A program made the translations under genes and the position numbers. Source: an uncultured bacterium (GTDB lineage Bacteria; Omnitrophota; Omnitrophia; Omnitrophales; Abzuiibacteriaceae). From it: a DNA stretch of 64,000 bases. Shown here one piece after another: positions 32,486 to 64,000 of the stretch (position 1 is the first letter of the stretch; each line of letters starts with the position of its first letter). The DNA lies in contig CAYLXA010000005.1 in the NCBI GenBank assembly GCA_964387845.1, positions 96,001-160,000 on the forward strand, in the 5' to 3' direction. The notes beneath the pieces were generated by a model. It did not search any database. It saw nothing but the letters and a program-made list of their open reading frames with translations, and was not told where the DNA came from.

Positions 32486-32814
32486 GAGTAATTTGCCCTC
32501 CCTTTTTTGGTAGCCCTTCCGCCTTTTGGCTTCAGGACGATGCTTCTAACTGCGTGAAGCATCGGGCAAATCACTTAATGTGGTGTCTTTATGCGATGAT
32601 CGCAACCCTGTCCCAGCGCCACTTTGAAACAAAAACTTGTTTCTAATCAAAGCGCTGGACTGGACTCATTTCCTATAGACCGAACGGTTCCATTAATGAA
32701 AATGAGTCCTGGTACTGCTTGATGCGAGAGTGAAGGATATCATATGTCCGGTCCGTATCAAAATGATTTTTTTCAGTTAAATTAATCCCGAAAGGGTATA
32801 TTTTATTAATTCGA

Positions 32815-32918
32815 GTTAAATATTATACCTTATAAGGTATAATATTTTTAAATTATACCAAAAAAGGTATAATATTTTACTAAAGTAGTTGATATTATAC
32901 CCTTAATGGTATACTATT
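32815..32918 (+). promoter_or_regulatory. Three TATACC-N5/6-GGTATA operator palindromes upstream of hipB
   Basis: 'tataccttataaggtata', 'tataccaaaaaaggtata' and 'tatacccttaatggtata'. The third overlaps the first in-frame ATG. Confidence 0.6.
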
Positions 32919-32923
32919 CTGCC

Positions 32924-33145
32924 ATGGATTACATTGGAGAAGAAATTCAAAATTTGCGTAAAAGAGCAGGGCTCACTCAACGAGAATTCGCGAAGCGAGT
33001 GGGTGTGGGGCTTAGATTTATTCGTGATCTTGAACAAGGAAAATCTACCGTACGGCTTGATAAGGTAAATCAGGTGCTTGAATTTTTAGGGCATCATTTG
33101 GAGATTGTTGCCAACCGTGAACGAAAAAATATTCAGAAAAGCTAG
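32924..33145 (+). CDS. hipB: XRE-family HTH protein, HipB-like
   Basis: 'LRKRAGLTQREFAKRVGVGLRFIRDLEQGK' is a Cro/C1-type HTH. It is the first gene of a three-gene hip operon. Confidence 0.75.
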   Translation: MDYIGEEIQNLRKRAGLTQREFAKRVGVGLRFIRDLEQGKSTVRLDKVNQVLEFLGHHLEIVANRERKNIQKS

Positions 33146-33461
33146 AGTTAACTACAAAGATGAACTTGCCGGTTATTTACAAGAAACCGAGAATGGTTTT
33201 CAATTTCTGTATGATGAAAATTATTTGCGTTCCGGCGGACAGCCAATTTCTGTGTCACTTCCTTTAACGAATGAGCCTTACGAATCAAAAGAGCTTTTTA
33301 GTTTCTTCCGCGGACTTTTGCCGGAAGGTTGGTACCTCGATATCGTGAGTGCGGCTAAGAAAATCGATACCAATGATTCTTTCGGCCTGCTTCTGGCTAC
33401 CACAGGCGACACGATCGGCGCAGTGACCGTATATCCAATCCGGGAAAGCGATGAGTCCTAA
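33117..33461 (+). CDS. hipS: HipS-like protein (stand-alone HipA N-terminal subdomain)
   Basis: About 115 aa, similar to HipA N-terminal subdomain 1. The start is uncertain (GTG at 33117 or TTG at 33105). It overlaps the next gene by 11 nt. Confidence 0.6.
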   Translation: MNEKIFRKARVNYKDELAGYLQETENGFQFLYDENYLRSGGQPISVSLPLTNEPYESKELFSFFRGLLPEGWYLDIVSAAKKIDTNDSFGLLLATTGDTIGAVTVYPIRESDES

Positions 33462-34311
33462 TCTGTTTGAAGAAATGTTTGGCACGAGCGAAGCTCCTAC
33501 AATCCCACTTTCGTTGAAGGATGTTCCTCTTCAAGCGCAAGTGATGGCGGGGTATATGTCCATTTCAGGGGTGCAGCCAAAATTGGTGCTGAAATTGGAT
33601 AAGCGTAAAAATGAGCTGACGGTGGCTCAGACGGATGGTGAATATATTTTAAAACCGCAAATCCCGCATTTCCCCCAGACGCCCGAAAATGAAAACTGCT
33701 GTATGGATATCGCTCAGGCGTTTGAGATTGAGGTGCCGCCCCATTGCCTTCTTCCACTGAAAGACGGAAGCCTGGCTTATGCGGTGAAGCGTTTCGATCG
33801 TGTGAGCGGCGAAAAAATCAATCAAGAAAGCTTTTATCAAATTCTTGAAAAAAGAGACAAATATATGGGCTCTCTGGAACAAATCGGTAACAGCCTGAAA
33901 CAAATTTCCGTAGTGCCGGGCCTGGATGTTCAGCTTTTCTTTGAATTAGTCGTTTTCAATTTTCTGATCGGCAATGGTGACGCGCATTTTAAAAATTACT
34001 CCATTTCTTATTTAAAGGATGGCATCCGGCTTTCTCCGGCCTATGATCTGGTTTGTTCCAAGCTGGTGATTCCGGGCGATTCGGATTCCGCACTCACGAT
34101 CAATGGCAAGAAGAATAATCTTAGGCGGGGCGATTTTGATGTGTTGGCTGCTTATTTAAAAATTCCGGAAAAGGTTCGTTACGATAAGTTTGCAGGTCAG
34201 CTTGGAAAAATGGAGCAATTGATTCGAGCCAGCCAACTCTCGGCAGATTTTAAAAAGACGTTTATTCAAATAGTTTCTTCACGTTTTGATCGGCTTAAAT
34301 TGGTGAATTAA
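33451..34311 (+). CDS. hipT: HipT-like Ser/Thr kinase toxin (HipA C-terminal kinase domain)
   Basis: 'LIGNGDAHFKNYSI' is the catalytic motif and 'SPAYDLVCS' is also present. At 286 aa it lacks the HipA N-terminal subdomain, which is supplied separately. Confidence 0.7.
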   Translation: MSPNLFEEMFGTSEAPTIPLSLKDVPLQAQVMAGYMSISGVQPKLVLKLDKRKNELTVAQTDGEYILKPQIPHFPQTPENENCCMDIAQAFEIEVPPHCLLPLKDGSLAYAVKRFDRVSGEKINQESFYQILEKRDKYMGSLEQIGNSLKQISVVPGLDVQLFFELVVFNFLIGNGDAHFKNYSISYLKDGIRLSPAYDLVCSKLVIPGDSDSALTINGKKNNLRRGDFDVLAAYLKIPEKVRYDKFAGQLGKMEQLIRASQLSADFKKTFIQIVSSRFDRLKLVN

Positions 34312-34480
34312 GCGCGCTGAGCCCGGCACGATTAGAACAGGTACCAAAACATTACAAAGTAGTTAATCTAATTTCCTTATATTCACAGTTAAAATATGTA
34401 TATTTATATACATATATATGTATTGAATAGTACATTTATATGTATATAATAATACATATTATATTTGACATTAACACTTT

Positions 34481-34909
34481 TTGAGGGTAGATTTTCTCGT
34501 ACCGGAGGAAGCTGAATATACTAGATTAGTCAAATTTATGACCGCGGCCGGCTATAAACAAGTGACAGGCTATGGTTGGCAGAAAAAAGGAGAGGCAATC
34601 ATTTTTGATCTTTATGTCGGTAATTCGGTTTATTCAACGGAATTATTGTCATCGCCGCTTGAAAAAGGCGGCCATCAGAAATTGAAGGAATGGAATAAAA
34701 TTTATTTAGGTGCTTTAAATCCGGTAGATCTGATTATTTCAAAAATGTTTCGCGGCAGCGAAGTGGATGTCCAGGACAGTTTAGCGTTACTCAAGCATGA
34801 GAAAATTAGTATTGAGGAATTAAAGAAACGATACATCAAAACAGCCAAATATGATGTAAGCGAAGACAGGGTATTGAAAAATTTAGATACATTACTCAGG
34901 AGGCTTTAA
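34481..34909 (+). CDS. Hypothetical protein, first gene of an uncharacterised two-gene module
   Basis: The ORF begins at a TTG, with an alternative ATG at 34538. An AT-rich palindromic promoter region lies upstream. No confident family was assigned. Confidence 0.5.
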   Translation: MRVDFLVPEEAEYTRLVKFMTAAGYKQVTGYGWQKKGEAIIFDLYVGNSVYSTELLSSPLEKGGHQKLKEWNKIYLGALNPVDLIISKMFRGSEVDVQDSLALLKHEKISIEELKKRYIKTAKYDVSEDRVLKNLDTLLRRL

Positions 34910-34911
34910 TC

Positions 34912-35583
34912 ATGGATAAAAGTGATTTGTTGGACCAATTGGCTCAGCATGGCTATTCATTGATGAAGCCAAAATCAGCCGAGCCGGCCGAAAAACTGCT
35001 GGAGGCATTGCTGAAGCAGGATGATGCGCGTCTTTTGGAGGGCTTTCCGGTGGTGTTGGCCAACGCGTTTGACCAAAAAGACGGCTTGACGTGGGAAAAT
35101 CCTAAATGGAATGCTGAGGAATGGCAGGGAAAAAACAGAAGAAAATTGGTGGCCATGCTGTCTTTTAGTTATTATTTGTTTCGTTTATTTGGATTGGCGG
35201 AGTCTGAAAAGAAAGTTTTAGATTTGGTCAAGAAATTAAAAGGGGATAAAACGCTTCTTCATTTAACCGAATCTTTTGCGGAGTCCAAAGAAGTAGACTT
35301 GGACGGTGTCTCGCTATCAACGGAAAGATTAAAAAGCGCTTTCCGCCAATATGTATTAACGTCGGATCAAGGCGACGAAGTCGAAAAAAAGAAACGCGCG
35401 TTGGAATTAGAGCTGCTGCTTTCCGAACTGTTCAGCACGCGGCAAAAAGAACTGCTTGAGAAGCGGCTTGGTGGGGAGGAATTCACCAAAACAGAGCGTG
35501 AATACTATTACCGCGTCGTCAAAAAACGCTTGAAAGCGCTCGCGAGTGACGAACTTCACCAGATGGCCCGTTCGTTGGTTTAG
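34912..35583 (+). CDS. Hypothetical protein, second gene of the two-gene module
   Basis: It starts 3 nt after the upstream gene. The C-terminal 'RQKELLEKRLGGEEFTKTEREYYYRVVKKRLKAL' looks helix-turn-helix-like. Confidence 0.55.
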   Translation: MDKSDLLDQLAQHGYSLMKPKSAEPAEKLLEALLKQDDARLLEGFPVVLANAFDQKDGLTWENPKWNAEEWQGKNRRKLVAMLSFSYYLFRLFGLAESEKKVLDLVKKLKGDKTLLHLTESFAESKEVDLDGVSLSTERLKSAFRQYVLTSDQGDEVEKKKRALELELLLSELFSTRQKELLEKRLGGEEFTKTEREYYYRVVKKRLKALASDELHQMARSLV

Positions 35584-35595
35584 GGCGGGGGGTGT

Positions 35596-35633
35596 GGCTT
35601 GAAGCTTGAAGCTTGTAGCCTGCAGCCCACAAT
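35596..35633. repeat. REP-like repeat, copy B
   Basis: 'ggcttgaagcttgaagcttgtagcctgcagcc'. Confidence 0.6.
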
Positions 35634-36020
35634 CCTATCCGCCGAGCCTTACCCCTTACCCCTAAGTTTCAATCTGGACACAAAGCTTTTTGAGGCATAA
35701 ATCCTACTTAAATTGTGCCTGTACCTGTCCACCAAAATGATGCCTGGCACCTTTCTGTTAAGGATTCATATGCAACTCCTTTTTCCTGTAACATCAGGAT
35801 ATCAGGTGTTGCACTAGTAACTTGAACTCAAGCAGGTACCGAAGTAGAAATCCACTTCCTATCCGCTATACGTTGTTCGCGAACCAATAAAATAGTTGTT
35901 GAAATATAATATAAAGATTGTAAAATAATTACCTCACGCAAACAGTAAACCCCTCTCACGCCTTCACGCGCAAAATCAAACTAATTTCGTAATGCGTTCA
36001 CAAGAAAGGCGGATTTGCCA

Positions 36021-36809
36021 ATGAAAAAAGAAAAACTCATTTCTCAGAGGGATGGTTTACCAATTCGTTCAAGCGGTCCTTGGATCCGCAAAAAACATCA
36101 CTATTTAATCAGATATGCTGACATATTTACCCGAGGGATGAAGAACAAATGGGAATTGACGTACCTTGATCTTTTTGCCGGGCCCGGATGCTGCTTAATT
36201 GAGAAAGAGATGATCGAATTAGCCGGATCTCCGTTACTTGCATTAGGTTTTGATTTTAGGAAATACATTTTTATTGAACAGGATCATGATGACCTTGAAG
36301 CATTGAAACAGCGGTGCTCAAAATCACCAAAACTAAGCCAGATTCAATTCATAGAAGGGGATTGTAATAAGAATATTGATCAAATTCGATTGACGGGATT
36401 AACGCTGGCTTTTATCGATCCAACTGGTATTGACGTTCATTTTGAAACGATTAAACGACTCACCTCTTTAGGGCCGGTGGACCTGCTAATAAACATACCA
36501 TTTCACATTGATATCAAGCGCAACTTCACGAAGTATATAAAAACCCAACATAAAAAATTGGATCTCTTTCTTGGCGGTAAGGTACCGTGGGATAAATTGC
36601 ATCAAGAAAGGGATGTTTTAGAGTTATACAAAAAGCGAATAAAGGATTTGGGGTATCAAACCGTAGAATACAGCGACATAGTTGTCAGTAATACAAACAA
36701 AGTTCCTATGTACTTTCTTTTCTTTGCGTCCAAGCATTCGCGTGGTGTAGAATTCTGGAAGAAAATTACCAAGAAAGACGAAACCGGACAACTGGAGTTA
36801 GAACTCTAA
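36021..36809 (+). CDS. Three-Cys-motif partner protein TcmP family (MTase-like fold)
   Basis: '[11 protein letters not shown]' resembles SAM-binding motif I. 'FIDPTG' sits in the place of a DPPY-like motif. The gene is adjacent to a Gp37/Gp68 (DUF5131) gene, which is the defining context of TcmP. Confidence 0.6.
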
Positions 36810-36811
36810 GA

Positions 36812-37570
36812 ATGAGCGATAAATCAAATATCGAATGGACCGACGCGACATGGAATCCGGTAACGGGATGCAATAAAATCAGCCCCGGATGTAAAAACTG
36901 CTACGCCGAAACTTTCGCTGAGCGCTGGCGGGGAATTCCGGGCCATCCCTACGAACAGGGTTTTGACCTCAGATTATGGCCTGAGCGTGTCGGCTTGCCA
37001 TTATCGTGGAAAGAGCCGCGGATGATTTTTGTCAATTCCATGTCTGATCTTTTTCATAAAGATGTTCCGGATGACTTTATAGGGAAAGTATTTGAAACGA
37101 TGCTCAAAGCTAATCAGCATACTTTCCAGGTTCTGACCAAGCGGCCTGAGCGCATGGTTGAATGGACCAAGAAAACATTCGGCAATCAAAAATTACCGCG
37201 TCATATCTGGCTTGGTGTTTCGGTTGAAAACCAGGATTACGTATGGCGAATCATGTATCTTCAGCAAACACCGGCTCAAATCCGTTTTCTTTCGGTTGAG
37301 CCTCTTTTGGGGCCTGTTGTTTTAAAATCTTCAAATTTAAAAGGCATTCATTGGGTGATCGTGGGTGGCGAGAGCGGACACAGAGCCCGTCCTATGAATC
37401 CCGACTGGGCGCGTGATATCCGCAATCAATGCGAAAAATATGGCGTCGCTTTTTTCTTCAAACAATGGGGCGCTTTTAACGCGAAAGGCGAACGCGTTGG
37501 TAAAAAAGCCGCCGGCCGGGTTCTCGACCGCAGAACCTGGAACGAAATGCCAATTACAATCCCCGCCTAG
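36812..37570 (+). CDS. Phage Gp37/Gp68 family protein (DUF5131), three-Cys motif
   Basis: The N-terminus '[27 protein letters not shown]' is the family signature and includes a CX6CX2C motif. Confidence 0.7.
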
Positions 37571-37596
37571 AATCCATCTCTCGTGGTTTAAACGAG

Positions 37597-37625
37597 AAGC
37601 TTGTAGCCTGTAGCTTGCAGCTTAT
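37597..37625. repeat. REP-like repeat, copy C
   Basis: 'gaagcttgtagcctgtagcttgcagc'. Confidence 0.55.
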
Positions 37626-37744
37626 CATCATGATATAATTCCTATCGCGACGGCGCCCACATTGACCGCCGCGTGATGGCACTTGCGCCAGCGTTACCGC
37701 AGGTGCCTGCGAACGAAGTGACGCAGAATAAAGCGCAAGTGTCT

Positions 37745-38092
37745 ATGTCCGACATCAAGAAACTCACCGAAAAGATCAAGCAATTCCGCGACGAACGGGA
37801 TTGGAAGCAATTCCACAACCACAAAGATATGGCACTTTCACTTGTTCTTGAAGCCGCTGAACTTTTAGAACATTTCCAGTGGAAAACATTGGATGAAGTT
37901 GAAAAGCACGTGAAAACCTCAAAAGAGGATGTTTCAGATGAGCTTGGCGATGTCGCGATCTATCTTTTCGAGCTCGCCGATAACTTAGGGATAGACCTAT
38001 CAGAAGCGGTAGAAAGCAAGCTTCTTAAGAATGCCAGAAAATATCCTATACAAAAATCTAAAGGCACCATAACCAAGTACAATCAATTGTAA
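37745..38092 (+). CDS. MazG-like nucleotide pyrophosphohydrolase (all-alpha NTP-PPase)
   Basis: 'ERDWKQFHNHKDMALSLVLEAAELLEHFQWK...ELGDVAIYLFELAD' is the MazG/dCTPase-like EExxE/D signature. Confidence 0.7.
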   Translation: MSDIKKLTEKIKQFRDERDWKQFHNHKDMALSLVLEAAELLEHFQWKTLDEVEKHVKTSKEDVSDELGDVAIYLFELADNLGIDLSEAVESKLLKNARKYPIQKSKGTITKYNQL

Positions 38093-38099
38093 AGATTAA

Positions 38100-38876
38100 A
38101 TGCCCGGCAATGAATCTGCAGTAATAAAGTATTTGTTCAGAAATAAGAATCGTCTCGAGTTACCTCATTTAGGTTTAATAAAATCAATTGGGTTTCCAAA
38201 TGGACTCACAAATAACTACAAAGAAATAAAAAATGAAAATGAAATTTTAGAATGTTGCTCAGACAATGCTCGAAAAAAAGCAGATGTCTATATTAATGGG
38301 CAAGGCGTATCAATAAAACAATCAGGAGGAAGTTTTTCTTTTAATCGTTTGCAGCGTGCCGAGTTAATAGAAGTTTTTGCTAGTTTAATTTTTGATGCCC
38401 CTCATAATGTTTTAACTCAATTAGATAAAGAAGTTGAAAAATTTCATTTTGGAAAATTATCAGGACGTGGTAGGCCGTGGAAAGATTTTTTCTCAAATAA
38501 AGAATTTTATGCTTTAACAAATGCTCTTATGATGTTGCAATCTCCAAATTATGGACTTTCTCTTCATCCCGCTAAATTTATTCTGGAGGCTTCAAAAAAT
38601 TTAACAACCAATCCGAGTTTAAAAGTTTATACTTTTGATGAATATTTTGAACGTTATAACGAGTTTTTCAGGATTGCTATAAGACGTGTTTGGTTGGGGC
38701 AGAATAGTAAATCTGAGCATGGCCGTGCAAAAAGTCTAATAGCAAAACCTGAGAATGCAACCTGGGTCTTTAATACAATTTCCGGAACGCCAAGAAGTGG
38801 TTGGAAAGTTGATTTTCCAAAGTCGGAAAGAAGAACTGTGTATTATTTGATGATAGAAAAAGTAAATTCAAAATGA
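38100..38876 (+). CDS. Hypothetical protein, putative type II restriction endonuclease by context
   Basis: Very AT-rich, with no family recognised. It directly precedes vsr and overlaps it by 4 nt, upstream of the dcm-type methyltransferase. Confidence 0.4.
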   Translation: MPGNESAVIKYLFRNKNRLELPHLGLIKSIGFPNGLTNNYKEIKNENEILECCSDNARKKADVYINGQGVSIKQSGGSFSFNRLQRAELIEVFASLIFDAPHNVLTQLDKEVEKFHFGKLSGRGRPWKDFFSNKEFYALTNALMMLQSPNYGLSLHPAKFILEASKNLTTNPSLKVYTFDEYFERYNEFFRIAIRRVWLGQNSKSEHGRAKSLIAKPENATWVFNTISGTPRSGWKVDFPKSERRTVYYLMIEKVNSK

Positions 38877-39301
38877 CATTTGTATTTCAAACGACAAGTC
38901 AACGCTCCGAGTTAATGAAAAAGATTAAAGGAGTTAACACTAAGCCAGAAATTGCTTTTGCAAAGAAACTTGAATTATACAAAGTCAAGTTTAGAAAACA
39001 TTTTAAAAAACTCCCTGGAGTACCGGATTTTGCTATTTTGAGAGGTAGAGTAGCGGTGTTTATCGATGGGGAGTTTTGGCATGGATACAATTGGGTTAAT
39101 AAAAAGAAAAGGATAAGATCCAACCGACAATACTGGATTAAAAAAATAGAAAGAAATATACTAAGAGATTCGATAAATATGAGAGAATTAAAGAAAATAG
39201 GTTGGTATCCTTTAAGATTTTGGCAGCATGAAGTTGTTGCTGAGGGTGATAAATGTATAAAGAAAATCGAAAAAATAATGCAGCGACGAAGTTCAAAATA
39301 G
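38873..39301 (+). CDS. vsr: Very-short-patch-repair endonuclease
   Basis: 'KPEIAFAKKL...PGVPDFAILRGRVAVFIDGEFWHG'. Confidence 0.85.
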   Translation: MTFVFQTTSQRSELMKKIKGVNTKPEIAFAKKLELYKVKFRKHFKKLPGVPDFAILRGRVAVFIDGEFWHGYNWVNKKKRIRSNRQYWIKKIERNILRDSINMRELKKIGWYPLRFWQHEVVAEGDKCIKKIEKIMQRRSSK

Positions 39302-40383
39302 CATCTTTTTTTGCTGGCTGTGGCGGCCTAGATTTAGGTTTCCAGCAAGCGGGCTTTGATGTTGTTTGGGCAAATGAATACGATAAAACAATTTGGGCTA
39401 CCTACGAACACAACCATCCTCATACGTTTTTATGCAAGAAATCTATTATCGATGTCAAATCAGATGAAATTCCAACTGTTGTTGGCATGATAGGTGGCCC
39501 GCCATGCCAAAGCTGGAGTTTAGCCGGAGCCATGAGGGGAGTAAAAGACCCGCGAGGTAAACTTTTTTATGAATACATAAGAATCTTGGCCGATAAACAA
39601 CCATCATTTTTCTTAGCCGAAAATGTTGCGGGCATTGTTTCTAGCACTCATGTGAATTCATTTGAAAATATCCTTAAAAAATTCGAAGAAATTGGTTACG
39701 TTACTTCATATAAATTGCTTGATGCAAAATCCTACGGCGTTCCTCAGGATCGGAAAAGAGTTATCATTGTAGGGTATTCTAAAGGTTTACATAAGAAATT
39801 TGAATTCCCGCAAGAAACTCATGGTGTAAATTCAGCGAATGGCGACTTATTCAAGCCACATTTAAAACCCTATGAAACTTTACGCTCTGCAATTGACGAT
39901 TTGCCTAATCCGGTGCCTGCTAGTTTGAAAAATAAGTCGAACAGCAGAATTCGTATTCCAAATCACGAATATATGACAGGAGGTTTTTCTACCATTTACA
40001 TGTCACGAAATAGGAGAAGAAATTGGAATGAGCCTTCATTTACAATTCAGGCGGGAGGCCGGCATGCACCGCTACATCCATCAAGCACTGAAATGATTAA
40101 AAAAGAGCCAGATTGGTGGGTATTTAAAAAGAAAGACAAAAAGGCTTATCGGCGAATGTCGGTAAGAGAATGCGCACGAGTTCAAACCTTCCCTGATAAA
40201 TTCATATTCAAATATGATTCAATTGCGGATGGTTATAAAATGGTTGGTAATGCAGTTCCCGTCGAGTTGGCGCGTGTTATAGCATTAAGAATAAAGTCAG
40301 ATTTGATACCAGAGAAAAATAATCTTAAAAGATCATCCCTTCGCAAAACACCCTATTCCGAATTGGTGTTAGCTTCCTCATAA
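39253..40383 (+). CDS. dcm: DNA (cytosine-5)-methyltransferase
   Basis: Motif I 'FAGCGGLDLGF', motif IV 'GGPPCQSWS' and 'ENV'. The start is uncertain and overlaps the vsr 3' end. Confidence 0.9.
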   Translation: MYKENRKNNAATKFKIASFFAGCGGLDLGFQQAGFDVVWANEYDKTIWATYEHNHPHTFLCKKSIIDVKSDEIPTVVGMIGGPPCQSWSLAGAMRGVKDPRGKLFYEYIRILADKQPSFFLAENVAGIVSSTHVNSFENILKKFEEIGYVTSYKLLDAKSYGVPQDRKRVIIVGYSKGLHKKFEFPQETHGVNSANGDLFKPHLKPYETLRSAIDDLPNPVPASLKNKSNSRIRIPNHEYMTGGFSTIYMSRNRRRNWNEPSFTIQAGGRHAPLHPSSTEMIKKEPDWWVFKKKDKKAYRRMSVRECARVQTFPDKFIFKYDSIADGYKMVGNAVPVELARVIALRIKSDLIPEKNNLKRSSLRKTPYSELVLASS

Positions 40384-40424
40384 ACCGTAAACTGGACACC
40401 GTCCGGCAGAAAAAAGGTTGTTGA

Positions 40425-41540
40425 ATGAGGCAAATATTCATAGTAGTGGCAGGAGGCAATGCTGCTGCTGATCGTCACTTCGAAGATACAATCCAACGTA
40501 AACGTACCTTAGATGAAGTGCGGCAATTTCTATCTTCCCAAGAAATTCATGAGATCGAATCAGTTTATCATACAGCACCTTTTATTGTCTGGGGCGCTAT
40601 TCCCGGCCCAATGAATATTCCGCGTTGGCAAAGTATGCGTGTTGGCGATATTGTTTTGATTTACACAAGAGGACATATCCGATTAATTGGCGAAGTGGCA
40701 TCAAAAGTAAGAAGTAATTCGTTGGCTCGCTATTTTTGGAAAGAAACACCCGAAAACAAAACCTGGGAATTGATTTATTTTATTGTAAATGAACAAAGGG
40801 TAAATATACCGATGCCTTTATTAAATGAAGCGCTTGGTTATAGCGCAAGTTACTCTCCGAGGGGATTTAGTTCTGTCGATTCTGATAAGGTCAAATCATT
40901 CGTTAATCGTTATGGCGATATATTCGAAGGGCTTAAAACACTCAGTAAAGGCGAGAAACTAATCGAAATTTCGCCAGCGAAAAAGTTAGAAGTCCAACAG
41001 GTTGAAGAAAAGATTGAACAATCATCGAATGAGCATGACGAAATGCAATGGCGGTTAATTAGATTGGGCAAATTGTCAAGGTACGATGTTTGGGTTCCCA
41101 GAAATGATCAAGGGCACAGCTTTGGAGGTCAACGATTTCGGGATTTTGTGTTGCCGGAATTCCACGAGAGTTTAGATGTTCCACCCAGTATTAAAAATAT
41201 CGATGTCGTGTGGAAATTTGGTCCTTATTCGATCACATCTGCATTTGAAGTCGAACATTCAACATCCGTTTATTCAGGAATTTTAAGGCTTTCGGATCTG
41301 AGAACCGAAACACCGAATTCACAATACCCACTTTTTATTGTTGCTGACGAAGCAAGAAAGCGGAAGGTATTTTCGGAACTTGCGCGCCCCACTTTCTCAA
41401 ATCCCTTTTTGCGACTTCACGAAGTAATACGATTTTTGAGTTACGAAAGAATCAGGGACATTGATGAAAAGTATAAGCAAGAACCTGAATTTGAACCGCA
41501 AATACTCTTTACTGCCGGAGAAACTTTCGAGAAAAATTAA
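40425..41540 (+). CDS. PUA/EVE-like N-terminal domain fused to a putative PD-(D/E)xK nuclease. Candidate modification-dependent (type IV-like) restriction enzyme.
   Basis: The N-terminus 'VGDIVLIYTRGHIRLIGEV' is EVE/PUA-like. The C-terminus 'IDVVWKFGP...AFEVEHS' is (D/E)xK-like. Confidence 0.5.
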   Translation: MRQIFIVVAGGNAAADRHFEDTIQRKRTLDEVRQFLSSQEIHEIESVYHTAPFIVWGAIPGPMNIPRWQSMRVGDIVLIYTRGHIRLIGEVASKVRSNSLARYFWKETPENKTWELIYFIVNEQRVNIPMPLLNEALGYSASYSPRGFSSVDSDKVKSFVNRYGDIFEGLKTLSKGEKLIEISPAKKLEVQQVEEKIEQSSNEHDEMQWRLIRLGKLSRYDVWVPRNDQGHSFGGQRFRDFVLPEFHESLDVPPSIKNIDVVWKFGPYSITSAFEVEHSTSVYSGILRLSDLRTETPNSQYPLFIVADEARKRKVFSELARPTFSNPFLRLHEVIRFLSYERIRDIDEKYKQEPEFEPQILFTAGETFEKN

Positions 41541-41558
41541 CAAATCGAGGATCTTATC

Positions 41559-41711
41559 ATGATTAAATCAAGAAAATTGAAGGCTGATCTAACCCAGTTA
41601 TTAAATTATCTTTGGCATGACGAGAGAAAACATTATTTGGAGCGGCGAAACAAGAATCATATTTATTTAACAATTCGCAGATTGGCAAAAGAAATTAGTT
41701 ATAAGCCGTAA
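41559..41711 (+). CDS. Small ORF (50 aa), hypothetical
   Basis: 'MIKSRKLKADLTQLLNYLWHDERKHYLERRNKNHIYLTIRRLAKEISYKP'. It is too short for the ORF track and has no family assignment. Confidence 0.2.
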   Translation: MIKSRKLKADLTQLLNYLWHDERKHYLERRNKNHIYLTIRRLAKEISYKP

Positions 41712-41745
41712 ATCGAACGCGTCTCGACGATGTGCGGAAGATATT

Positions 41746-41822
41746 CATTAACCCTCGATAAAAAGAAACTCCTCGCGGAATTCGCGCCCGAGCCCCGCGC
41801 CCACAAATTTCTTGATTTCCAT
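41746..41822. repeat. ~77 bp direct repeat, copy 1 (upstream of the NTase-HEPN pair)
   Basis: 'cattaaccctcgataaaaagaaactcctcgcggaattcgcgcccgagccccgcgcccacaaatttcttgatttccat' is ~90% identical to 43032-43106. Confidence 0.8.
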
Positions 41823-41936
41823 TATAGGGGTAAGGATTAAGGGGTAAGTCGTAAGTTTTAAGTAGAATTATGCTGATAGTCATACCCCATCCCTCCTAAA
41901 CATTCCCCTTGAACATGTTGTAGTTATGTACTACAA

Positions 41937-42533
41937 TTGTTGTACATCATGACAACAAGTTTAATCTTTCAGCTCCAGCAAACCAAGTCGCCGCTCAGGA
42001 AGAAGCTTTTATCGTACTTCTTCACGAATCCCGGGGCGAAGCTCTATCTCAGAGATATCGCGCTCAAACTCCATGTCGATCCCGCGAATCTTTCGCGCGA
42101 GCTCAAGCGGCTCACCGATGAAAGTGTTTTTGTTGCCCAGAAGCAGGGTAATCTCAAATATTTCTCTTTGAATCCAAAGCACGCCTTATATGAAGAATTT
42201 AAGTCCATGATTTTTAAGACCATCGGCGCTCAAGGCGCGATTGAAAACCTGTTAAGTAAAATCCCGGGAATTAAACGCGCTTTTATTTATGGTTCGTTTG
42301 CCAAAAATACGGAGCGTGCGGATTCCGATATCGACCTTTGTATGATCATCCAAAAAAAAGAATTCAAAGAAAATCCTTTCCTTGAGGGAATTCATAAACT
42401 CGAAGGTGAACTTGGCAGGGAAATCAATTATACTTTCTTTACCGACGAAGAATGGCAGTCCAAGCAGCGATCTAAAGATAGCTTTGTCACCGGAATTCTT
42501 AAGAATAAAAAAATCGATCTCATGCATATATGA
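41937..42533 (+). CDS. wHTH-fused minimal nucleotidyltransferase (MNT-like)
   Basis: The N-terminal HTH 'LYLRDIALKLHVDPANLSRELKRL' and the NTase motif 'IYGSFAKN...DSDIDLCMI'. Confidence 0.7.
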   Translation: MLYIMTTSLIFQLQQTKSPLRKKLLSYFFTNPGAKLYLRDIALKLHVDPANLSRELKRLTDESVFVAQKQGNLKYFSLNPKHALYEEFKSMIFKTIGAQGAIENLLSKIPGIKRAFIYGSFAKNTERADSDIDLCMIIQKKEFKENPFLEGIHKLEGELGREINYTFFTDEEWQSKQRSKDSFVTGILKNKKIDLMHI

Positions 42534-42994
42534 AAAAAATTGATCTTCAAGATTTAATTCAAGAAGGGCAGCTTCAAGAAGAGCCAGGTATCGGCTGGGA
42601 CCAGGTGGAGCGTTTAATTAAACGGGCATTTGAAGATTTGAAATCAGCCGACCGGAACATGTCCTTTGATGAGCCGGGCGCGATGGATTTTATCTATAAG
42701 GCGATGTTTCATGCTGGGAACGCTTTGATTCGTTCATATGGGTTTAGGCCGGGCGCTACCAGACAGCATCAAGGTGTGATTACGGCAGTTGGGCGGATCT
42801 TGGGCGTTGAATCAAAGGCGCTGATTCTGAAATTTGATAAACTCAGGAAACGCCGCAATGAGTTTGAATATCAGGGCATTTTTGCGATGGGAAGAGAAGA
42901 GTTGAAAGATTCCATCGAACAAGCCAAACAATTGGTTGGCGTGATACGAAAAGCACTCGAAGATTCTCATCCACAAAAGCAGTTTAAATGGTAA
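42530..42994 (+). CDS. HEPN-like protein partnered with the NTase
   Basis: An all-alpha ~150 aa protein overlapping the NTase gene by 4 nt. It carries 'RKRRNEFEY' where the Rx4-6H motif would sit, but the His is not evident. Confidence 0.5.
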   Translation: MKKIDLQDLIQEGQLQEEPGIGWDQVERLIKRAFEDLKSADRNMSFDEPGAMDFIYKAMFHAGNALIRSYGFRPGATRQHQGVITAVGRILGVESKALILKFDKLRKRRNEFEYQGIFAMGREELKDSIEQAKQLVGVIRKALEDSHPQKQFKW

Positions 42995-43031
42995 GCGAAG
43001 ACCATAAAGACGGCGCCGGGCACCTGCTACT

Positions 43032-58575: not shown

Positions 58576-58693
58576 ATCAGTTTTTCGCGAATTTCCTCTT
58601 TGCAGGGCTTTTATTTGTCCGCATAAAGGCTCTGTACATCCGAAGTTTTAAGCGTATAATTGCCCACATCGCCTTTCAACACAGGAGTTTGTC

Positions 58694-59287
58694 ATGAAAA
58701 GTGCTGCTTTTAAGTCATTTCTCCTTTTATCCCTATCTTTCTTTGCCGTTCAACCCGCTTTTGCCGCTCAATATAAAATTGATCCCGATCACACGACGGT
58801 ACAATTCGAAATCAAACATCTGCTCACCAACGTGCGCGGCCGGTTCAATCATTTCAGCGGAAGTTTCACTTATGAAGCCGGTAAGCCTGAAACCTGGAAT
58901 GCCAATGTTAACATTCAGGCCGAAAGCATCGATACGAACGTTTCGGCGCGCGACAAGCATTTGCGGTCCGAAGACTTCGTCGATGTTGAAAAATTTCCGA
59001 TATTGAAATTTGAAAGCACAGGTGTTTCGGATGCGGGTGAATCGAGTTTTAAGCTGCAGGGCAATTTAACGATTCATGGCGTGACGAAACCCGTGACATT
59101 TGATGCCGAAATTTTAGGGACCGCAAAAGATCCTTGGGGTAATACATTTGCAAGTTTTACGGCTACGGCCAAGATTAACCGCAAAGATTTCGGGTTGACT
59201 TGGAATCAGGCCGTGGAAACAGGCGGATTCCTGGTTGGGGACGAAGTGACCATCATGCTGGAAGTGGCGGGATTACTTCAAGCGTAA
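58694..59287 (+). CDS. YceI-family periplasmic protein
   Basis: A signal peptide followed by 'YKIDPDHTTVQFEIKHL...VRGRFNHFSGSF'. Confidence 0.8.
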   Translation: MKSAAFKSFLLLSLSFFAVQPAFAAQYKIDPDHTTVQFEIKHLLTNVRGRFNHFSGSFTYEAGKPETWNANVNIQAESIDTNVSARDKHLRSEDFVDVEKFPILKFESTGVSDAGESSFKLQGNLTIHGVTKPVTFDAEILGTAKDPWGNTFASFTATAKINRKDFGLTWNQAVETGGFLVGDEVTIMLEVAGLLQA

Positions 59288-59348
59288 TGGGAACTATTTC
59301 CGGCCGGAATGTGTTAAGTCAATAACATCAACAACAGGAGGAGTACAA

Positions 59349-59606
59349 GTGGAAAAGAAGAATAGCAAAAAGAAAGCATTGTTGGCGGCGTCCATCGCAG
59401 GCTTAATTGCGGTTGCAGGCGCGGTGTTGCCGGCATCAGTTGCTTATGCGGAAGATGTAAAATGTTCAGGCGTCAATGCTTGCAAGGGCAATGGCGATTG
59501 CGGCGGCGCGGGAAGTTCTTGTGCTGGTTCTAATGCCTGCAAAGGCCAGGGCTGGATTTCGGTTTCTGAGAAGGCCTGCAAGCAGCTCGGCGGAACAGTG
59601 GCTTAA
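59349..59606 (+). CDS. Bufferin-like RiPP precursor (Sec signal peptide plus a 6-Cys core, DUF2282-like)
   Basis: GTG start with an 'aggagg' RBS. The signal peptide is 'KKALLAASIAGLIAVAGAVLPASVAYA'. The core is 'KCSGVNACKGNGDCGGAGSSCAGSNACKGQGW...KACKQLGG'. It is immediately upstream of the DUF692 gene. Confidence 0.7.
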   Translation: MEKKNSKKKALLAASIAGLIAVAGAVLPASVAYAEDVKCSGVNACKGNGDCGGAGSSCAGSNACKGQGWISVSEKACKQLGGTVA

Positions 59607-59662
59607 TAGCTGTGCCTTGAGTTGGTTTGTTGAAATACCGTGAAGCGTGACTGGAAAATGCA

Positions 59663-61381
59663 ATGAGCAAGATCACAAGCCGCGGCGTCGGAGTCGGTTT
59701 AAGAAAAGAGCACTACCCATCGATTCTTGAAAAATGGCCGCCCATGGATTGGTTTGAGGCCATTTCCGAGAATTACATGGATACGGGCGGCCGGCCGCTT
59801 GCTGCTTTGGAAAAAGTTCGTGCGCATTATCCCGTCGCGCTTCACGGTACTTCGATGTCGCTTGGCTCTACCGATCCTTTCCATCCCGATTATTTGCCCC
59901 GTCTGAAAAAATTAATCGATCGCATCGATCCTTTTATTGTTTCGGACCACCTTTGCTGGTCCGGCGTCGACAAAAACCACCTTTACGACTTACTGCCGCT
60001 TCCGTTTACCGAAGAGGCCATCCGGCACTTGGTTTCGCGCATTCAGCAGGTCCAGGAATATTTGGGGCGCTCCATCCTGATTGAAAATGTTTCGACTTAC
60101 ATCACTTTCAAGAACTCCGAAATCAGCGAATGGGAATTTATTTCCGAAATTTCAAAGCGTTCAGGATGCGGCATTCTGCTTGATCTCAACAACATTTATG
60201 TCAATTCCGTTAATCACCATTTTGACCCTTTCGACTATATTCAAAACATTCCAACCGAAGCCGTCGGTCAGTTTCATTTGGCGGGGCACACGGATATGGG
60301 AAAATATTTATTTGATACACACAGCGGTGCCGTGATTGACCGGGTTTGGGATCTGTACCGGAAAGCACTTGAGCGATTCGGACAAGTTTCAACCTTAATC
60401 GAGTGGGACGCCGAAATCCCGAGTTTCGAGAAGTTATCCGAAGAAGCCGCGAAAGCGCGGAATGTTTACAAAGAGTTTCCAGCCGTTGTTGCGAGGCATG
60501 AACCAAGCGGCGCCGAAGCAATCTCTGAATCGCAGATTGCTTCGACATCAACTTTGGAAACATCTCGCAATGACCGCAAAATTTTACTTTCCGAAATTCA
60601 AAAAAAATTCAGGCCCCGAATCCAGCCAAAGCGCCAGGCATTTGATCCTGCCGGCGAAGTTTTGAATCCCCAGGGCGGCGATCCGGGCGAAGTGCGCCTT
60701 GATGTTTACTCAAACGGTTATGTTGCGAGGTTCCAGGAGTCGCTCTCAGAAGTGTTCGAAGCTGTACACGCAGTCTTGGGCGATAGCGCATTCTATGATT
60801 TGGCGAGCGAATACACATTTCATTATCCGTCGATGCATTACAATTTAAATTTAGTCGGCTGTCATTTTCCGGATTTTTTAAAAACGCACCCGCTTTCAAA
60901 AAAAGTTCCTTTTTTGGCTGATTTGGCGCAGCTCGAGTGGCAAATTTCAGCGGCTTTTCATGCCTACGATATCGAGCCGATCAATCCGGCGCAGCTTGCG
61001 TCGATTCCGGCGGAGGAGTGGGAAGATCTGAGGGTGACTTTTCAGCCGTCGGTTTCGCTGCTTTCGTCGACATGGCCCGTGCTCGATATTTGGCTGAAAC
61101 GGCATGAGCGCGCAGAGCGAGTCAATATCGACTTAGAAAACAGGCCTCAACATGTATTAATCGGGCGCCGCGAACTTCAAGTCCGGTGCGAATTTTTGGA
61201 TTCACTCCAGTTTCACTTAATCAAAGGACTTTTAAACGGCCAAACGCTGGGCGAGGTATGCGGTGAGTTGGCGGATTTGGTTGAGGATGAAACCGAAATT
61301 CCCATAACCGATTGGTTTCAGCGCTGGGTCCGGGATCAAATGATTGTTCGCTGCGAATCTGCACGTCAAGCATCTTTGTAA
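59663..61381 (+). CDS. Fused DUF692 (MNIO, MbnB/BufB-like) and DUF2063 (BufC/MbnC-like) protein
   Basis: The N-terminus 'GVGVGLRKEHY...WFEAISENYMD...HGTSMSLGS' is the DUF692 TIM-barrel signature. The ~250 aa C-terminal half resembles the DUF2063 partner domain. Confidence 0.7.
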   Translation: MSKITSRGVGVGLRKEHYPSILEKWPPMDWFEAISENYMDTGGRPLAALEKVRAHYPVALHGTSMSLGSTDPFHPDYLPRLKKLIDRIDPFIVSDHLCWSGVDKNHLYDLLPLPFTEEAIRHLVSRIQQVQEYLGRSILIENVSTYITFKNSEISEWEFISEISKRSGCGILLDLNNIYVNSVNHHFDPFDYIQNIPTEAVGQFHLAGHTDMGKYLFDTHSGAVIDRVWDLYRKALERFGQVSTLIEWDAEIPSFEKLSEEAAKARNVYKEFPAVVARHEPSGAEAISESQIASTSTLETSRNDRKILLSEIQKKFRPRIQPKRQAFDPAGEVLNPQGGDPGEVRLDVYSNGYVARFQESLSEVFEAVHAVLGDSAFYDLASEYTFHYPSMHYNLNLVGCHFPDFLKTHPLSKKVPFLADLAQLEWQISAAFHAYDIEPINPAQLASIPAEEWEDLRVTFQPSVSLLSSTWPVLDIWLKRHERAERVNIDLENRPQHVLIGRRELQVRCEFLDSLQFHLIKGLLNGQTLGEVCGELADLVEDETEIPITDWFQRWVRDQMIVRCESARQASL

Positions 61382-61517
61382 GTTATTTTACCATAATAGT
61401 TTATATAAATTCCATTGGTCGCCCATTGACGGCACTGTTTTTACTGGTTATTATTATCAGGTCAGTTTCGGAATCAATCTTTGATTCAATTCGAGCGAGT
61501 TTATCAGGAGGAAAAAG

Positions 61518-61817
61518 ATGAAAAAGTTTTTTGCAGTGTTTGCAGTTTTGTTTTTGGCGGTTTTTGTGTTTTCAAGCCCGGCACTTCTTATTGCCGAGGA
61601 AGCAGCTCAACCGGCAGCTCCGGAAGAGCCTGTTGTTGAGCCTGCTGTAGCCGAACCCGCGGATGCATTGGTGGATGAAATGGATTCGGAAGAGTATTTT
61701 GATGAAGCCAAGGTTCTTCGTGATGCAGCGGCAAAGCTGAAAGGAATGGCGGGCGATGCGGAAGCTCAAAAGTTAGCCGGCCAGCTCGAAGAATTAGCGT
61801 CTGATTACGAATATTAA
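61518..61817 (+). CDS. Secreted acidic hypothetical protein
   Basis: A signal peptide 'FFAVFAVLFLAVFVFSSPALLIA' followed by a Glu/Ala/Pro-rich segment. Confidence 0.55.
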   Translation: MKKFFAVFAVLFLAVFVFSSPALLIAEEAAQPAAPEEPVVEPAVAEPADALVDEMDSEEYFDEAKVLRDAAAKLKGMAGDAEAQKLAGQLEELASDYEY

Positions 61818-61837: not shown

Positions 61838-61876
61838 AAAAAGGCCAGCAGCTGAACACTGCTGGCCTTTTTTTCT
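61838..61876 (+). terminator. Rho-independent terminator
   Basis: 'aaggccagcag-ctgaacact-gctggcctt' followed by a T-tract. Confidence 0.8.
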
Positions 61877-61887
61877 CAGGGAAGTTC

Positions 61888-64000
61888 ATGCCGTCTCACT
61901 CACAAAAGTCTCCCAATCATCTGATCCGGGAAAAAAGTCCCTATCTTTTGCAGCACGCCTATAATCCGGTCCATTGGTATCCGTGGGGCGGGGAAGCTTT
62001 TCAAAAATCCAAACTCGAAGACAAGCCCATCTTTCTTTCGATCGGATACTCAACCTGCCACTGGTGCCACGTAATGGAAGAAGAATCTTTCGAGAATCAA
62101 GCGGTCGCGGATATCCTGAACGAATATTTTGTATCGATCAAAGTGGACCGGGAAGAGCGGCCGGACGTGGACGGTATTTATATGAAAGCTGTCATGGCCA
62201 TGACCGGCTCAGGCGGTTGGCCGATGAGTGTTTTTCTGACACCGGATTTAGAACCTTTTTACGGCGGCACATATTTTCCGCCGGAAAGCCGCTACGGGCG
62301 TCCGGGATTCCTTACCATCTTGAATGCGATTGCGGATAAATGGAAAACCGAGAAAGGTTCTATGACAAGCGCCGGCAAAGAATTAGCCGGAGCGCTTCGG
62401 GCCGATTCGGAAAACGAGCCCGGTCAAAAAGCCGCATTGGATCAAAAGCTGCTTTCGGTTGCTTTTCATCAATTGGAATCCCAATATGACGGAGCCTTGG
62501 GCGGATTCGGCGGAGCACCGAAATTTCCGCGAAGCCACGTTATGTCTTACTTGTTCCGGTTTTGGAAACGCTCAGGGGAATCCGTGGCACTTGATATGTC
62601 GCTTCAAACGCTGCGTGAAATGGCGAAGGGCGGCATGTATGACCATGTGGGCGGCGGATTTCACCGATACTCCACCGATGCCAAATGGCACATCCCGCAT
62701 TTCGAAAAAATGCTTTACGACCAGGCGCTGATCGCCAAAACCTATCTCGAAGCATATCAGGCCACGCATGAGGAAAACTTTGCAAATGTAGCAGGGGAAA
62801 TATTTAATTATGTGCTCCATGATATGAAAGCCCCCGAGGGGGCATTCTATTCTGCCGAAGATGCCGATAGCTTGCCGGAGAAAGACTCAGCCAAAAAAAC
62901 AGAAGGCGCATTTTATATTTGGAGCGAGAAAGAAATTTTGGCGCTCTTGGGTGAAAAAAACGGAAAGTTTTTTAATTTCATCTTTGGTGTTGAACCGGAC
63001 GGCAATGCCGAAACCGATCCTCATGGTGAGTTTACCGGAAAGAATATTTTGTACTTAGCGCATTCGATTGATGAAGCGGCAAAAAATTTTAATAAAACCG
63101 AAGAAGAAATCAAAAAAATCGTCCGAGAATCAAAAACCATCTTACTAAAAGCGCGCGCAGAACGCCCAAAACCGCATCTGGATGACAAAATTTTGGCCGA
63201 CTGGAACGGCTTGATGATTTCAGCGCTCGCATCGGGTTCGCTCATTCTTCGAAATCCGTGCTATGCGGAGGTTGCTTGCAAAGCCGCCGATTTCATTATG
63301 GAGAAAATGACGATTCACGGGAAACTCATGCACCGTTACCGCGACGGAGAAGTGGCAATCGAAGGATTTCTGGATGATTATGCGTTTTTCTCGAACGCGC
63401 TTTTGGATCTTTATGAGGCGACTTTTCAGGTGCGGTATTTGAGTGAAGCGGCTCGGTTGGTTGAAAGAATGAATGCGCTTTTTTGGGATGGAAAAAGCGG
63501 AGGCTACTTTTTCTCAAGCTCTGGCGGCGAAAAATTGATTGCTCGAAGTAAGGAAATTTATGATGGCGCGATTCCTTCGGGGAATTCCGTAGCGGCAATG
63601 GTATTGGTTCGGCTTAACCGGATGACGGCAAAATCCGAATACGAAAAGCGTGCCGGTGAATTATTCGACGCGTTTTCTGTTCAGCTTGCGCAGTTTCCGG
63701 CCGGATATCCGCAGATGATGATGGCGTTTGATTTTTCGCAAGGCCCCTCGCGCGAAATCGTGATCGCGGGCAATCAAAAAGCCGAAGAGGTCCGGAAAAT
63801 AGCCGATATAATATTCAGCACATTTTCGCCGAACCAAGTAGTTCTGTTTCATCCTCAGGACGGAAGTGAGGCAGAAGCGGTTGAGCAGTTGGCACCGTTC
63901 GTGAAGAGCCAAGGACTTGTGAGCGGCAAACCGGCGGTTTATATTTGTGAGAATTACACATGTTCGCTTCCTGTGACGGATGTGTCAGATTTAAAAAAGA
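61888..64000 (+). CDS. Thioredoxin-domain protein of the YyaL/DUF255 family (3' end beyond the window)
   Basis: The frame is open from the ATG at 61888 to the window end. It encodes '[14 protein letters not shown]...[19 protein letters not shown]', with an (alpha/alpha)6-like remainder and '[14 protein letters not shown]' near the end. It is absent from the ORF track because there is no stop in the window. Confidence 0.85.

Follow-up and report, generated by a model that had tools for sequence, protein, structure and literature searches.

How did a bufferin locus come to encode its oxidase and the partner of that oxidase in one reading frame, and is it a bufferin locus at all? Bufferins are the largest group of ribosomally made peptides with post-translational modifications (RiPPs) that are modified by multinuclear non-heme iron oxidases (MNIOs), and they are a recently recognized bacterial copper defence. 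The locus studied here lies near the end of a 64,000-nucleotide stretch of DNA from an uncultured bacterium of the Omnitrophota (contig CAYLXA010000005.1, positions 96,001 to 160,000; hereafter the window). It is very probably a Buf2-type bufferin operon, yceI-bufA2-bufBC, in which both maturation proteins are made as one polypeptide. The assignment to Buf2 follows from BufA2, BufB and DUF2063 model scores above curated cut-offs, together with canonical Cys spacing in the precursor and an invariant metal site in the enzyme. Two features depart from the described Buf2 architecture: a natural single-chain BufB-BufC and a conserved yceI gene upstream. A first-pass annotation, made from the sequence alone, had reported three open reading frames (ORFs; 85, 572 and 99 aa) with several quoted motifs, all of which are present as stated; it had missed the conserved upstream yceI gene. 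The genes of the operon and the domains of its maturase are as follows.

58694..59287, + strand: yceI, secreted YceI-family lipocalin, 197 aa (PF04264, E 8e-50)
59349..59606, + strand: bufA2, predicted Buf2-type bufferin precursor, 85 aa (NF050166)
59663..61381, + strand: bufBC, predicted single-chain bufferin maturase, 572 aa (uninterrupted ORF, natural BufB-BufC fusion)
59684..60466, + strand: MNIO (DUF692, BufB-type) TIM-barrel domain, BufBC residues 8-268 (PF05114)
60470..60598, + strand: inter-domain linker, about residues 270-312 (disordered, length varies)
60599..61360, + strand: BufC-like partner (PME type 1), a DUF2063 helical domain plus a winged helix like the RiPP recognition element (RRE), residues 313-566 (PF09836, structure matches)

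The precursor and the single-chain maturase

The bufA2 gene begins with GTG, and AGGAGG lies 6 nt upstream. Its product was described at the first pass as an 85-aa protein with a Sec signal peptide and six Cys, and this is confirmed. The signal peptide, called by inspection rather than with a predictor, comprises residues 1-34 (59349-59450) and has a KKNSKKK n-region, a hydrophobic core and the junction AYA|ED. The 51-aa core that follows (EDVKC...GGTVA, 59451-59603) has a computed monoisotopic mass of 4848.145 Da when unmodified. Exactly six Cys are present (residues 39, 45, 51, 58, 64 and 77), spaced C-x5-C-x5-C-x6-C-x5-C-x12-C. The protein scores 72.2 bits against the equivalog model NF050166 (Cu_RiPP_BufA2; cut-off 60), the signature of Buf2. 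Identical Cys spacing, with a last gap of x12 or x13, is found in 56 of the 77 precursor-like ORFs that adjoin MNIO genes in 94 related loci gathered for comparison (L001, L004 and so on); a contig search with a single protein as query yielded only 4 loci. By these sequence features the precursor belongs to Buf2 (formerly Buf_6/12Cys), the second bufferin family. Six conserved Cys define Buf2 (twelve in duplicated forms) and are found in 90% of its members, so the six-Cys count, singled out as notable at the first pass, is the family norm (PMC12452194). As early as 2021, Antarctic soil metagenomes had revealed a six-Cys precursor beside DUF692 and DUF2063 genes (PMC8692599).

The precursor had been called DUF2282-type, but it has no PF10048 match at E<=0.1 and shows the BufA2 spacing of NF050166 instead. 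Clusters of the Buf1 type are marked by a DUF2282 precursor, four conserved Cys, usually DoxX (BufD) and often SigF/NrsF. Identity with DUF2282/BufA1 was rejected on the lack of a Pfam match and on six Cys instead of four, and a Buf1 biosynthetic gene cluster (BGC) was rejected on the same two points and on the lack of a DoxX or sigma gene in the window. An oxazolin (HvfABC) precursor does not fit either, as BufA2 is without EGKCG repeats, and a methanobactin system is at odds with the DUF2063-type partner and with a precursor that bears a Sec signal peptide. The first-pass annotation had remarked that DoxX and sigma/anti-sigma genes are lacking. DoxX, ECF sigma and anti-sigma genes are indeed absent from the window locus, but this is ordinary for Buf2 (PMC11626156, PMC12452194); the buf2 cluster of Caulobacter vibrioides also has no bufD/DoxX gene (PMC11626156).

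The 572-aa protein joins an MNIO and a DUF2063 domain in a single chain, as had been proposed. PF05114 matches residues 8-268 (363.9 bits, E 5.6e-109), NF050167 (MNIO_BufB) matches residues 9-266 (375.4 bits, cut-off 310), and PF09836/DUF2063 matches residues 313-406 (52.5 bits, cut-off 27.2). With BufA2 and BufB both above their cut-offs, the first-pass proposal of a bufferin-type RiPP locus stands. The HvfC model matches residues 343-561 (E 1.6e-9) at 38 bits, under its cut-off of 142, and the protein also misses the cut-offs of HvfB (268 vs 360), MbnB (TIGR04159, 53.9 vs 325), ApyH and ChrH.

Invariant residues are found in each half when 51 fused proteins are compared. H61, D95, H96, E141, D174, N177, H205, D218, H220 and E247 are invariant across all of them. 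When aligned with 7TCR, residues H96, E141, D174, N177, H205, D218 and H220 line up with MbnB H90, E133, D163, N166, H192, D208 and H210, which we take from the MbnBC structures to be iron ligands, and E247 fits the E-x-D motif of MbnB E239. Judged only by their places in the motif pattern, N177, D218 and H220 are the counterparts of N175, D242 and H244 of site 3 in HvfB, which are essential for activity.

An AlphaFold2 model of BufBC, built from the 51-protein alignment, has a pLDDT of 90.5 and a pTM of 0.88, and the relative placement of the two domains is confidently predicted. Only residues 280-303 are disordered, with pLDDT < 50 at residues 280-288 and 290-303, which gives a linker of about 25-40 residues. 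The equivalent segment in the 51 fused homologues is 30-82 residues of stop-free coding sequence. Foldseek matches the N-terminal half to 3BWW (TM 0.87) and also to TglH and MbnB. The C-terminal half, modelled alone (pLDDT 83), has only three significant PDB matches, namely TglI 8HCI_A (E 1e-6), 8HI7_A and NGO1945 3DEE (E 7.5e-6, TM 0.72). All three are known MNIO partners, and NGO1945/3DEE is the archetypal DUF2063+RRE protein. A sequence profile of this half gives only a chance match among PDB sequences (granulysin, E 0.79); since it finds neither 3DEE nor TglI, the likeness is structural. The first-pass annotation had made its proposal depend on a DUF2063-like C-terminal half, and the PF09836 score and the TglI and NGO1945 structures bear this out. 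Judged by sequence and predicted structure together, BufBC joins a BufB-type MNIO in frame to a complete DUF2063+RRE partner.

Distribution and origin of the fused gene

Homologues of BufBC were sought in a collection of 5.8 billion proteins. The best 120 listed are all 537-629 aa long, carry both Pfam domains, share 48-73% identity with BufBC and come from many samples. A second, exhaustive search covered 1.84 billion representatives at 50% identity. Among the best 150 of these representatives, 115 are at least 500 aa long, and most align over both halves at 31-44% identity. The natural fusion is widespread, with at least 115 clusters at 50% identity. The first pass had called the fusion notable because the two proteins are separate in described systems; the fusion is genuine and that contrast is sound, but it is not rare. 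Fused homologues with a named organism are from Omnitrophota, plus one metagenome-assembled genome (MAG) of Eisenbacteria. Twenty of the 94 loci have the fused gene, in 17 distinct places when identical loci are counted once, and the rest are split. No description of a natural MNIO-DUF2063 fusion was found in the searchable literature, which leaves subscription-only papers outside.

Split loci indicate how the fusion may have arisen. The bufB and bufC genes overlap by ATGA in L004 (Sulfuritalea, Pseudomonadota MAGs). At five other loci (L012, L017, L020, L021 and L023) the two genes are in the same frame, separated by one stop that is followed by ATG at once or within a few codons. These five belong to the split subclade nearest the fused loci, so losing one stop codon suffices for fusion. 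The simplest explanation of the fusion is that adjacent or translationally coupled bufB and bufC lost the stop codon that separated them. All fused loci fall into one clade, with one split subclade, in a neighbour-joining tree of MNIO domains.

Two fused genes are orphans with no precursor or yceI nearby (L016 4959-6677 and L014 1050-2888). In L016 the orphan is flanked by an amino-acid permease/UspA-like gene on one side and a LacI-type regulator on the other.

The yceI gene and the surrounding locus

The product of yceI has a signal peptide ending in ...AFA|AQ and no Cys. Of the 13 distinct fused loci whose upstream sequence extends about 1 kb or more, 11 have its gene immediately upstream of bufA2, and the two exceptions are L014 and L016, the orphans that also lack a precursor. 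The same position is seen in 11 split loci, ten of which are in the clade of the fused loci, and in the split locus L059 yceI is downstream of bufA2; no other split locus with upstream sequence in the 94-locus set has it. The spacer between yceI and bufA2 is 0-77 nt in 14 of 19 measured loci. Contig size served as an independent proxy: of the 58 close clusters of YceI homologues on contigs of at least 3 kb, 22 lie on a contig of exactly the same size as a listed fused BufBC contig. The yceI gene is the first gene of a conserved yceI-bufA2-bufB(C) module.

The searchable literature, again with subscription-only papers outside it, held no paper naming both "YceI" and "MNIO" and nothing on Omnitrophota with DUF692/MNIO. 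A supplementary legend mentions one bufferin BGC with YceI plus cytochrome b (PMC12452194). The same survey admitted unrelated genes into a cluster only if they were <=10 bp away (PMC12452194), a rule that would shut out most of these yceI genes. The conserved yceI and the redox neighbours described below were probably overlooked by published neighbourhood rules.

Genes for thiol-redox proteins recur beside the module. A DsbA-like gene paired with MauE/DoxX occurs at L092 (1557-6770), L094 (1869-6997), L015 (2886-8533) and L019 (6577-7823), often with overlapping stops and starts; L029 and L034 have only the DsbA-like gene, and L054 has only MauE/DoxX. In L092 the module is followed by an msrB (SelR) gene. 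The start of yyaL overlaps the stop of bufBC in L015 and L094, and yyaL comes after a small acidic ORF in L006 and in the window. The remaining features of the window locus are listed here.

58633..58660, + strand: putative sigma-70-like promoter, TGTACA-16-TATAAT, between rpoD and yceI (consensus scan, 10/12 matches)
61518..61817, + strand: secreted, very acidic protein, 99 aa, with its own ribosome-binding site (no family match)
61838..61874, + strand: intrinsic terminator, 9-bp GC stem GGCCAGCAG/CUGCUGGCC, 7-nt loop, U7
61888..64000, + strand: yyaL, Thioredox_DsbH/DUF255 thioredoxin-domain protein, runs past the window end (PF03190, E 1e-77)

The first-pass annotation placed a YyaL gene beyond a terminator, and the PF03190 match from 61888 agrees with this. 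On the contig of L001, which is identical and longer, the complete yyaL encodes 712 aa and is followed by a DsbD_TM-thioredoxin gene. As yyaL recurs directly after bufBC in unrelated loci, the window yyaL, though a separate unit, is probably not a random neighbour. An accessory role in envelope stress is probable for the YceI lipocalin and for the thiol-redox genes that are variably attached. A further idea, which we put forward tentatively as a possibility, is that yceI-bufA2-bufB(C) is a distinct bufferin subtype centred on Omnitrophota, with YceI and a variable DsbA-like/MauE-DoxX or YyaL as functional components and with single-chain BufBC as an ancestral or selected form. If this is true, YceI might couple the periplasmic thiooxazole peptide to quinone/lipid redox, or it might replace the DoxX of Buf1.

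Two other kinds of neighbour were seen among the related loci. A TauE/SafE-family membrane transporter gene, not found in the window, lies just upstream of yceI in L006 (3221-3856), L008 (3233-3958) and L010 (1552-2277). Genes for an ECF sigma factor and an RskA-type anti-sigma factor are divergent from or adjoin Buf2-type clusters in L092 (1557-2892, - strand) and also in L063 and L082; sigma/anti-sigma genes have been reported for Buf1 and not for Buf2 clusters (PMC12452194).

The small secreted acidic protein noted at the first pass is present after bufBC, but it is not a conserved part of the system. It contains no Cys and no His, has a mature pI of about 4, and gave no match in family-model scans. 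A homologue is found only in the closest relative (L006/L007), at 61% identity. It was considered as a second substrate or conserved member and rejected on these grounds, since a protein without Cys cannot be a substrate of a Cys-directed MNIO. It is probably a lineage-specific neighbour and not part of the bufferin system.

Upstream of bufA2 the gene order is dnaG, rpoD, yceI. Homologues of the window RpoD that carry an organism name are without exception from Omnitrophota/Omnitrophica, at 68-76% identity, as the Omnitrophota host would lead one to expect. The terminator at 61838..61874 folds at -24.1 kcal/mol (z = -3.05), and 0 of 200 shuffles fold equally well; the promoter/terminator scan overlooked it, probably because A/U tracts lengthen its stem. 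RNA folding in the yceI-bufA2, bufA2-bufBC and bufBC-99-aa spacers is no better than in shuffled controls, and no attenuator was found in them. Sigma-70-like sites in the region are no more numerous than expected from shuffling, so the site at 58633..58660 is a candidate only. A second promoter-like site from the consensus scan is at 61426-61454, ahead of the 99-aa ORF. With spacers free of structure, a promoter-like site before yceI and a terminator after the 99-aa gene, the simplest transcription unit runs from yceI through the 99-aa gene and is closed at 61838..61874, leaving yyaL as a separate unit here.

The yceI-bufA2 spacer contains a motif, GGAACTATTnnCnGCCGGAATGTGTT, common to the window (59291-59317) and its closest relative (L006, about 4630-4655). 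The 12-nt palindrome TTCCGGCCGGAA sits inside this motif in the window and forms no stable hairpin. The motif could be an operator, or it could reflect mere shared ancestry. The corresponding spacer of L010 (Omnitrophica RIFCSPHIGHO2 MAG, 4415-4621) is 205 nt long and has three long GC-rich inverted repeats, which suggests that in that lineage yceI and bufA2 have a terminator or attenuator between them.

Over the whole window (1-64000), nearly all ORFs of at least 180 aa are on the + strand, and cumulative GC skew climbs monotonically. Scans of the full 64 kb for tRNA genes and Rfam families detected nothing. A low-GC segment at 31454-43000 (GC 0.35-0.44, compared with about 0.49 elsewhere) looks like a mobile/defence island. 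It encodes a YhcG/DUF1016 PD-(D/E)XK nuclease, a HipA_C kinase, a DUF5131 (phage Gp37/Gp68-like) protein, a nucleotidyltransferase, and a C5 cytosine DNA methylase. An unannotated 371-aa ORF comes after the methylase and is a candidate restriction enzyme.

Proposed function and comparison with known systems

By homology to Caulobacter Buf2 and HvfBC, we infer the following mechanism. In the cytoplasm, the C-terminal partner domain would dock on the N-terminal TIM barrel and present the BufA2 core, and fusion would set a 1:1 stoichiometry. Using a di- or tri-iron cofactor and O2, the enzyme would convert the central Cys II-V (45, 51, 58 and 64) to 5-thiooxazoles at -4 Da each. The precursor would be exported by Sec and cut by signal peptidase after AYA34, and Cys I and VI (39 and 77) would form a disulfide in the periplasm. 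The outcome would be a folded 51-residue peptide, -18 Da in total from 4848.145 Da, that would act as a periplasmic chelator of Cu(I)/Cu(II). In the characterized Buf2, a disulfide links Cys I to Cys VI and each of Cys II-V loses 4.03 Da, for an overall change of -18 Da (PMC11626156). HvfB and HvfC associate weakly, which is why a covalent 1:1 link matters, and an engineered HvfB-HvfC fusion fully modified HvfA in vivo, with a product yield well above that of the co-expressed pair (bioRxiv 10.64898/2026.07.17.739211).

A periplasmic copper or redox role, suggested at the first pass, can reasonably be extended to this locus from Caulobacter Buf2, the sole characterized member, which is induced by copper and protects against it (PMC11626156). 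It is less probable, and on balance rather unlikely, that the product is a Buf2-like thiooxazole peptide with a role other than copper buffering, either binding another soft metal (Au, Hg, Ag, Zn) or giving periplasmic protection against redox or oxidative stress together with YceI and the thiol-redox neighbours. The conserved partner is a YceI lipocalin, a family tied in one report to detoxification of lipid peroxyl radicals with cytochrome b561 (PMC9113575), and DsbA-like plus MauE/DoxX, YyaL, MsrB and DsbD-thioredoxin genes recur beside the module, with no copper gene or regulator nearby. Some bufferins have also been suggested to respond to other metals, from MerC fusions and gig operons (PMC12452194). 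Against this, besides the copper response of the Caulobacter system, the NCBIfam BufA2 model is named for a Cu metallophore, and the precursor is over its equivalog cut-off.

We consider it quite improbable that BufBC performs other MNIO chemistry, such as formation of an oxazolone/thioamide as in methanobactin or another Cys rearrangement, in place of 5-thiooxazole formation. According to two preprints, either product has been assigned to MNIOs that are close relatives of one another, and the two products are analytically hard to separate (bioRxiv 10.64898/2025.12.15.693703, 10.64898/2026.06.05.730506). However, the protein passes the BufB equivalog cut-off and fails those of MbnB (54 vs 325), HvfB (268 vs 360), ApyH and ChrH, its substrate is a canonical BufA2, and recent work favours 5-thiooxazoles for bufferins and oxazolin. 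There is a negligible chance that the 572-aa ORF arose artefactually in assembly or sequencing, through a lost stop or a frameshift (which the first pass had allowed for) that merged an ordinary bufB and bufC. Split relatives are often one in-frame stop apart, so one base error could mimic a fusion, but the idea is effectively refuted already by an identical protein on two independent assemblies (NCBI and Logan), by full-length fusion in at least 120 distinct homologues (48-73% identity) and in at least 115 clusters at 50% identity, and by a linker without stops in 51 homologues.

Several points count against the copper-binding Buf2 operon that we prefer. The interdomain geometry of BufBC comes from AlphaFold alone, and the chemistry, copper specificity and export are all carried over from a distant alphaproteobacterial homologue. 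The tree of MNIO domains is without support values, and a single origin of the fusion is not claimed. The locus adjoins neither a copper-responsive regulator nor any other copper gene. MNIOs, moreover, depend on O2.

As a known Buf2 family member and a modest architectural variant, the locus does not change the basic picture of bufferins; its practical interest is to MNIO biochemists. Natural fusions with evolved linkers may serve as ready-made stoichiometric holoenzymes for structural and spectroscopic work, and they show that function tolerates the B-to-C order with a free linker. The artificial HvfBC fusion was built only recently to stabilize a weakly associating complex (bioRxiv 10.64898/2026.07.17.739211). 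The yceI gene and the recurrent thiol-redox neighbours are testable candidates for accessory functions. With this locus bufferins are also placed in a candidate phylum, Omnitrophota, whose biology has hardly been studied by experiment.

The closest known system is Buf2 of C. vibrioides (BufA2/BufB2/BufC2, CCNA_02999-03001; PMC11626156, PMC12452194). Like the window, it has a Sec precursor with six Cys in the same spacing, a BufB-type MNIO, a DUF2063+RRE partner, and no DoxX or sigma/anti-sigma gene in the cluster. Its product carries four thiooxazoles and one disulfide, as is predicted for the window peptide. The window differs in that BufB and BufC form one 572-aa chain with a disordered linker, yceI is immediately upstream, the host is from Omnitrophota and not Pseudomonadota, and no SigF-type regulation is in sight.

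The engineered HvfBC of the Haemophilus influenzae oxazolin system is likewise a single chain with the MNIO N-terminal and the DUF2063/RRE partner C-terminal (bioRxiv 10.64898/2026.07.17.739211). It is artificial, has no linker and acts on the EGKCG-repeat substrate HvfA, whereas BufBC occurs naturally, with a linker of about 40 residues, and falls short of the HvfB cut-off. Among MbnBC, TglHI and NGO1945, the N-terminal half of BufBC matches MbnB and TglH and the C-terminal half matches TglI and NGO1945, with conserved metal-site residues. MbnBC and TglHI are two-chain complexes that act on cytoplasmic leader-peptide substrates, with chemistry other than that predicted for the window. To our knowledge, MbnC is not a DUF2063 protein.

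MovX and ChrH have been given as exceptions to the rule of separate partners, in an account that does not mention natural B-C fusions (bioRxiv 10.64898/2026.07.17.739211). MovX resembles BufBC in being a natural single-chain MNIO with a substrate-recognition domain of its own. However, MovX belongs to another MNIO subfamily with another substrate and has only a winged-helix/RRE-like C-terminal domain, whereas the window protein is predicted to carry the full DUF2063+RRE partner.

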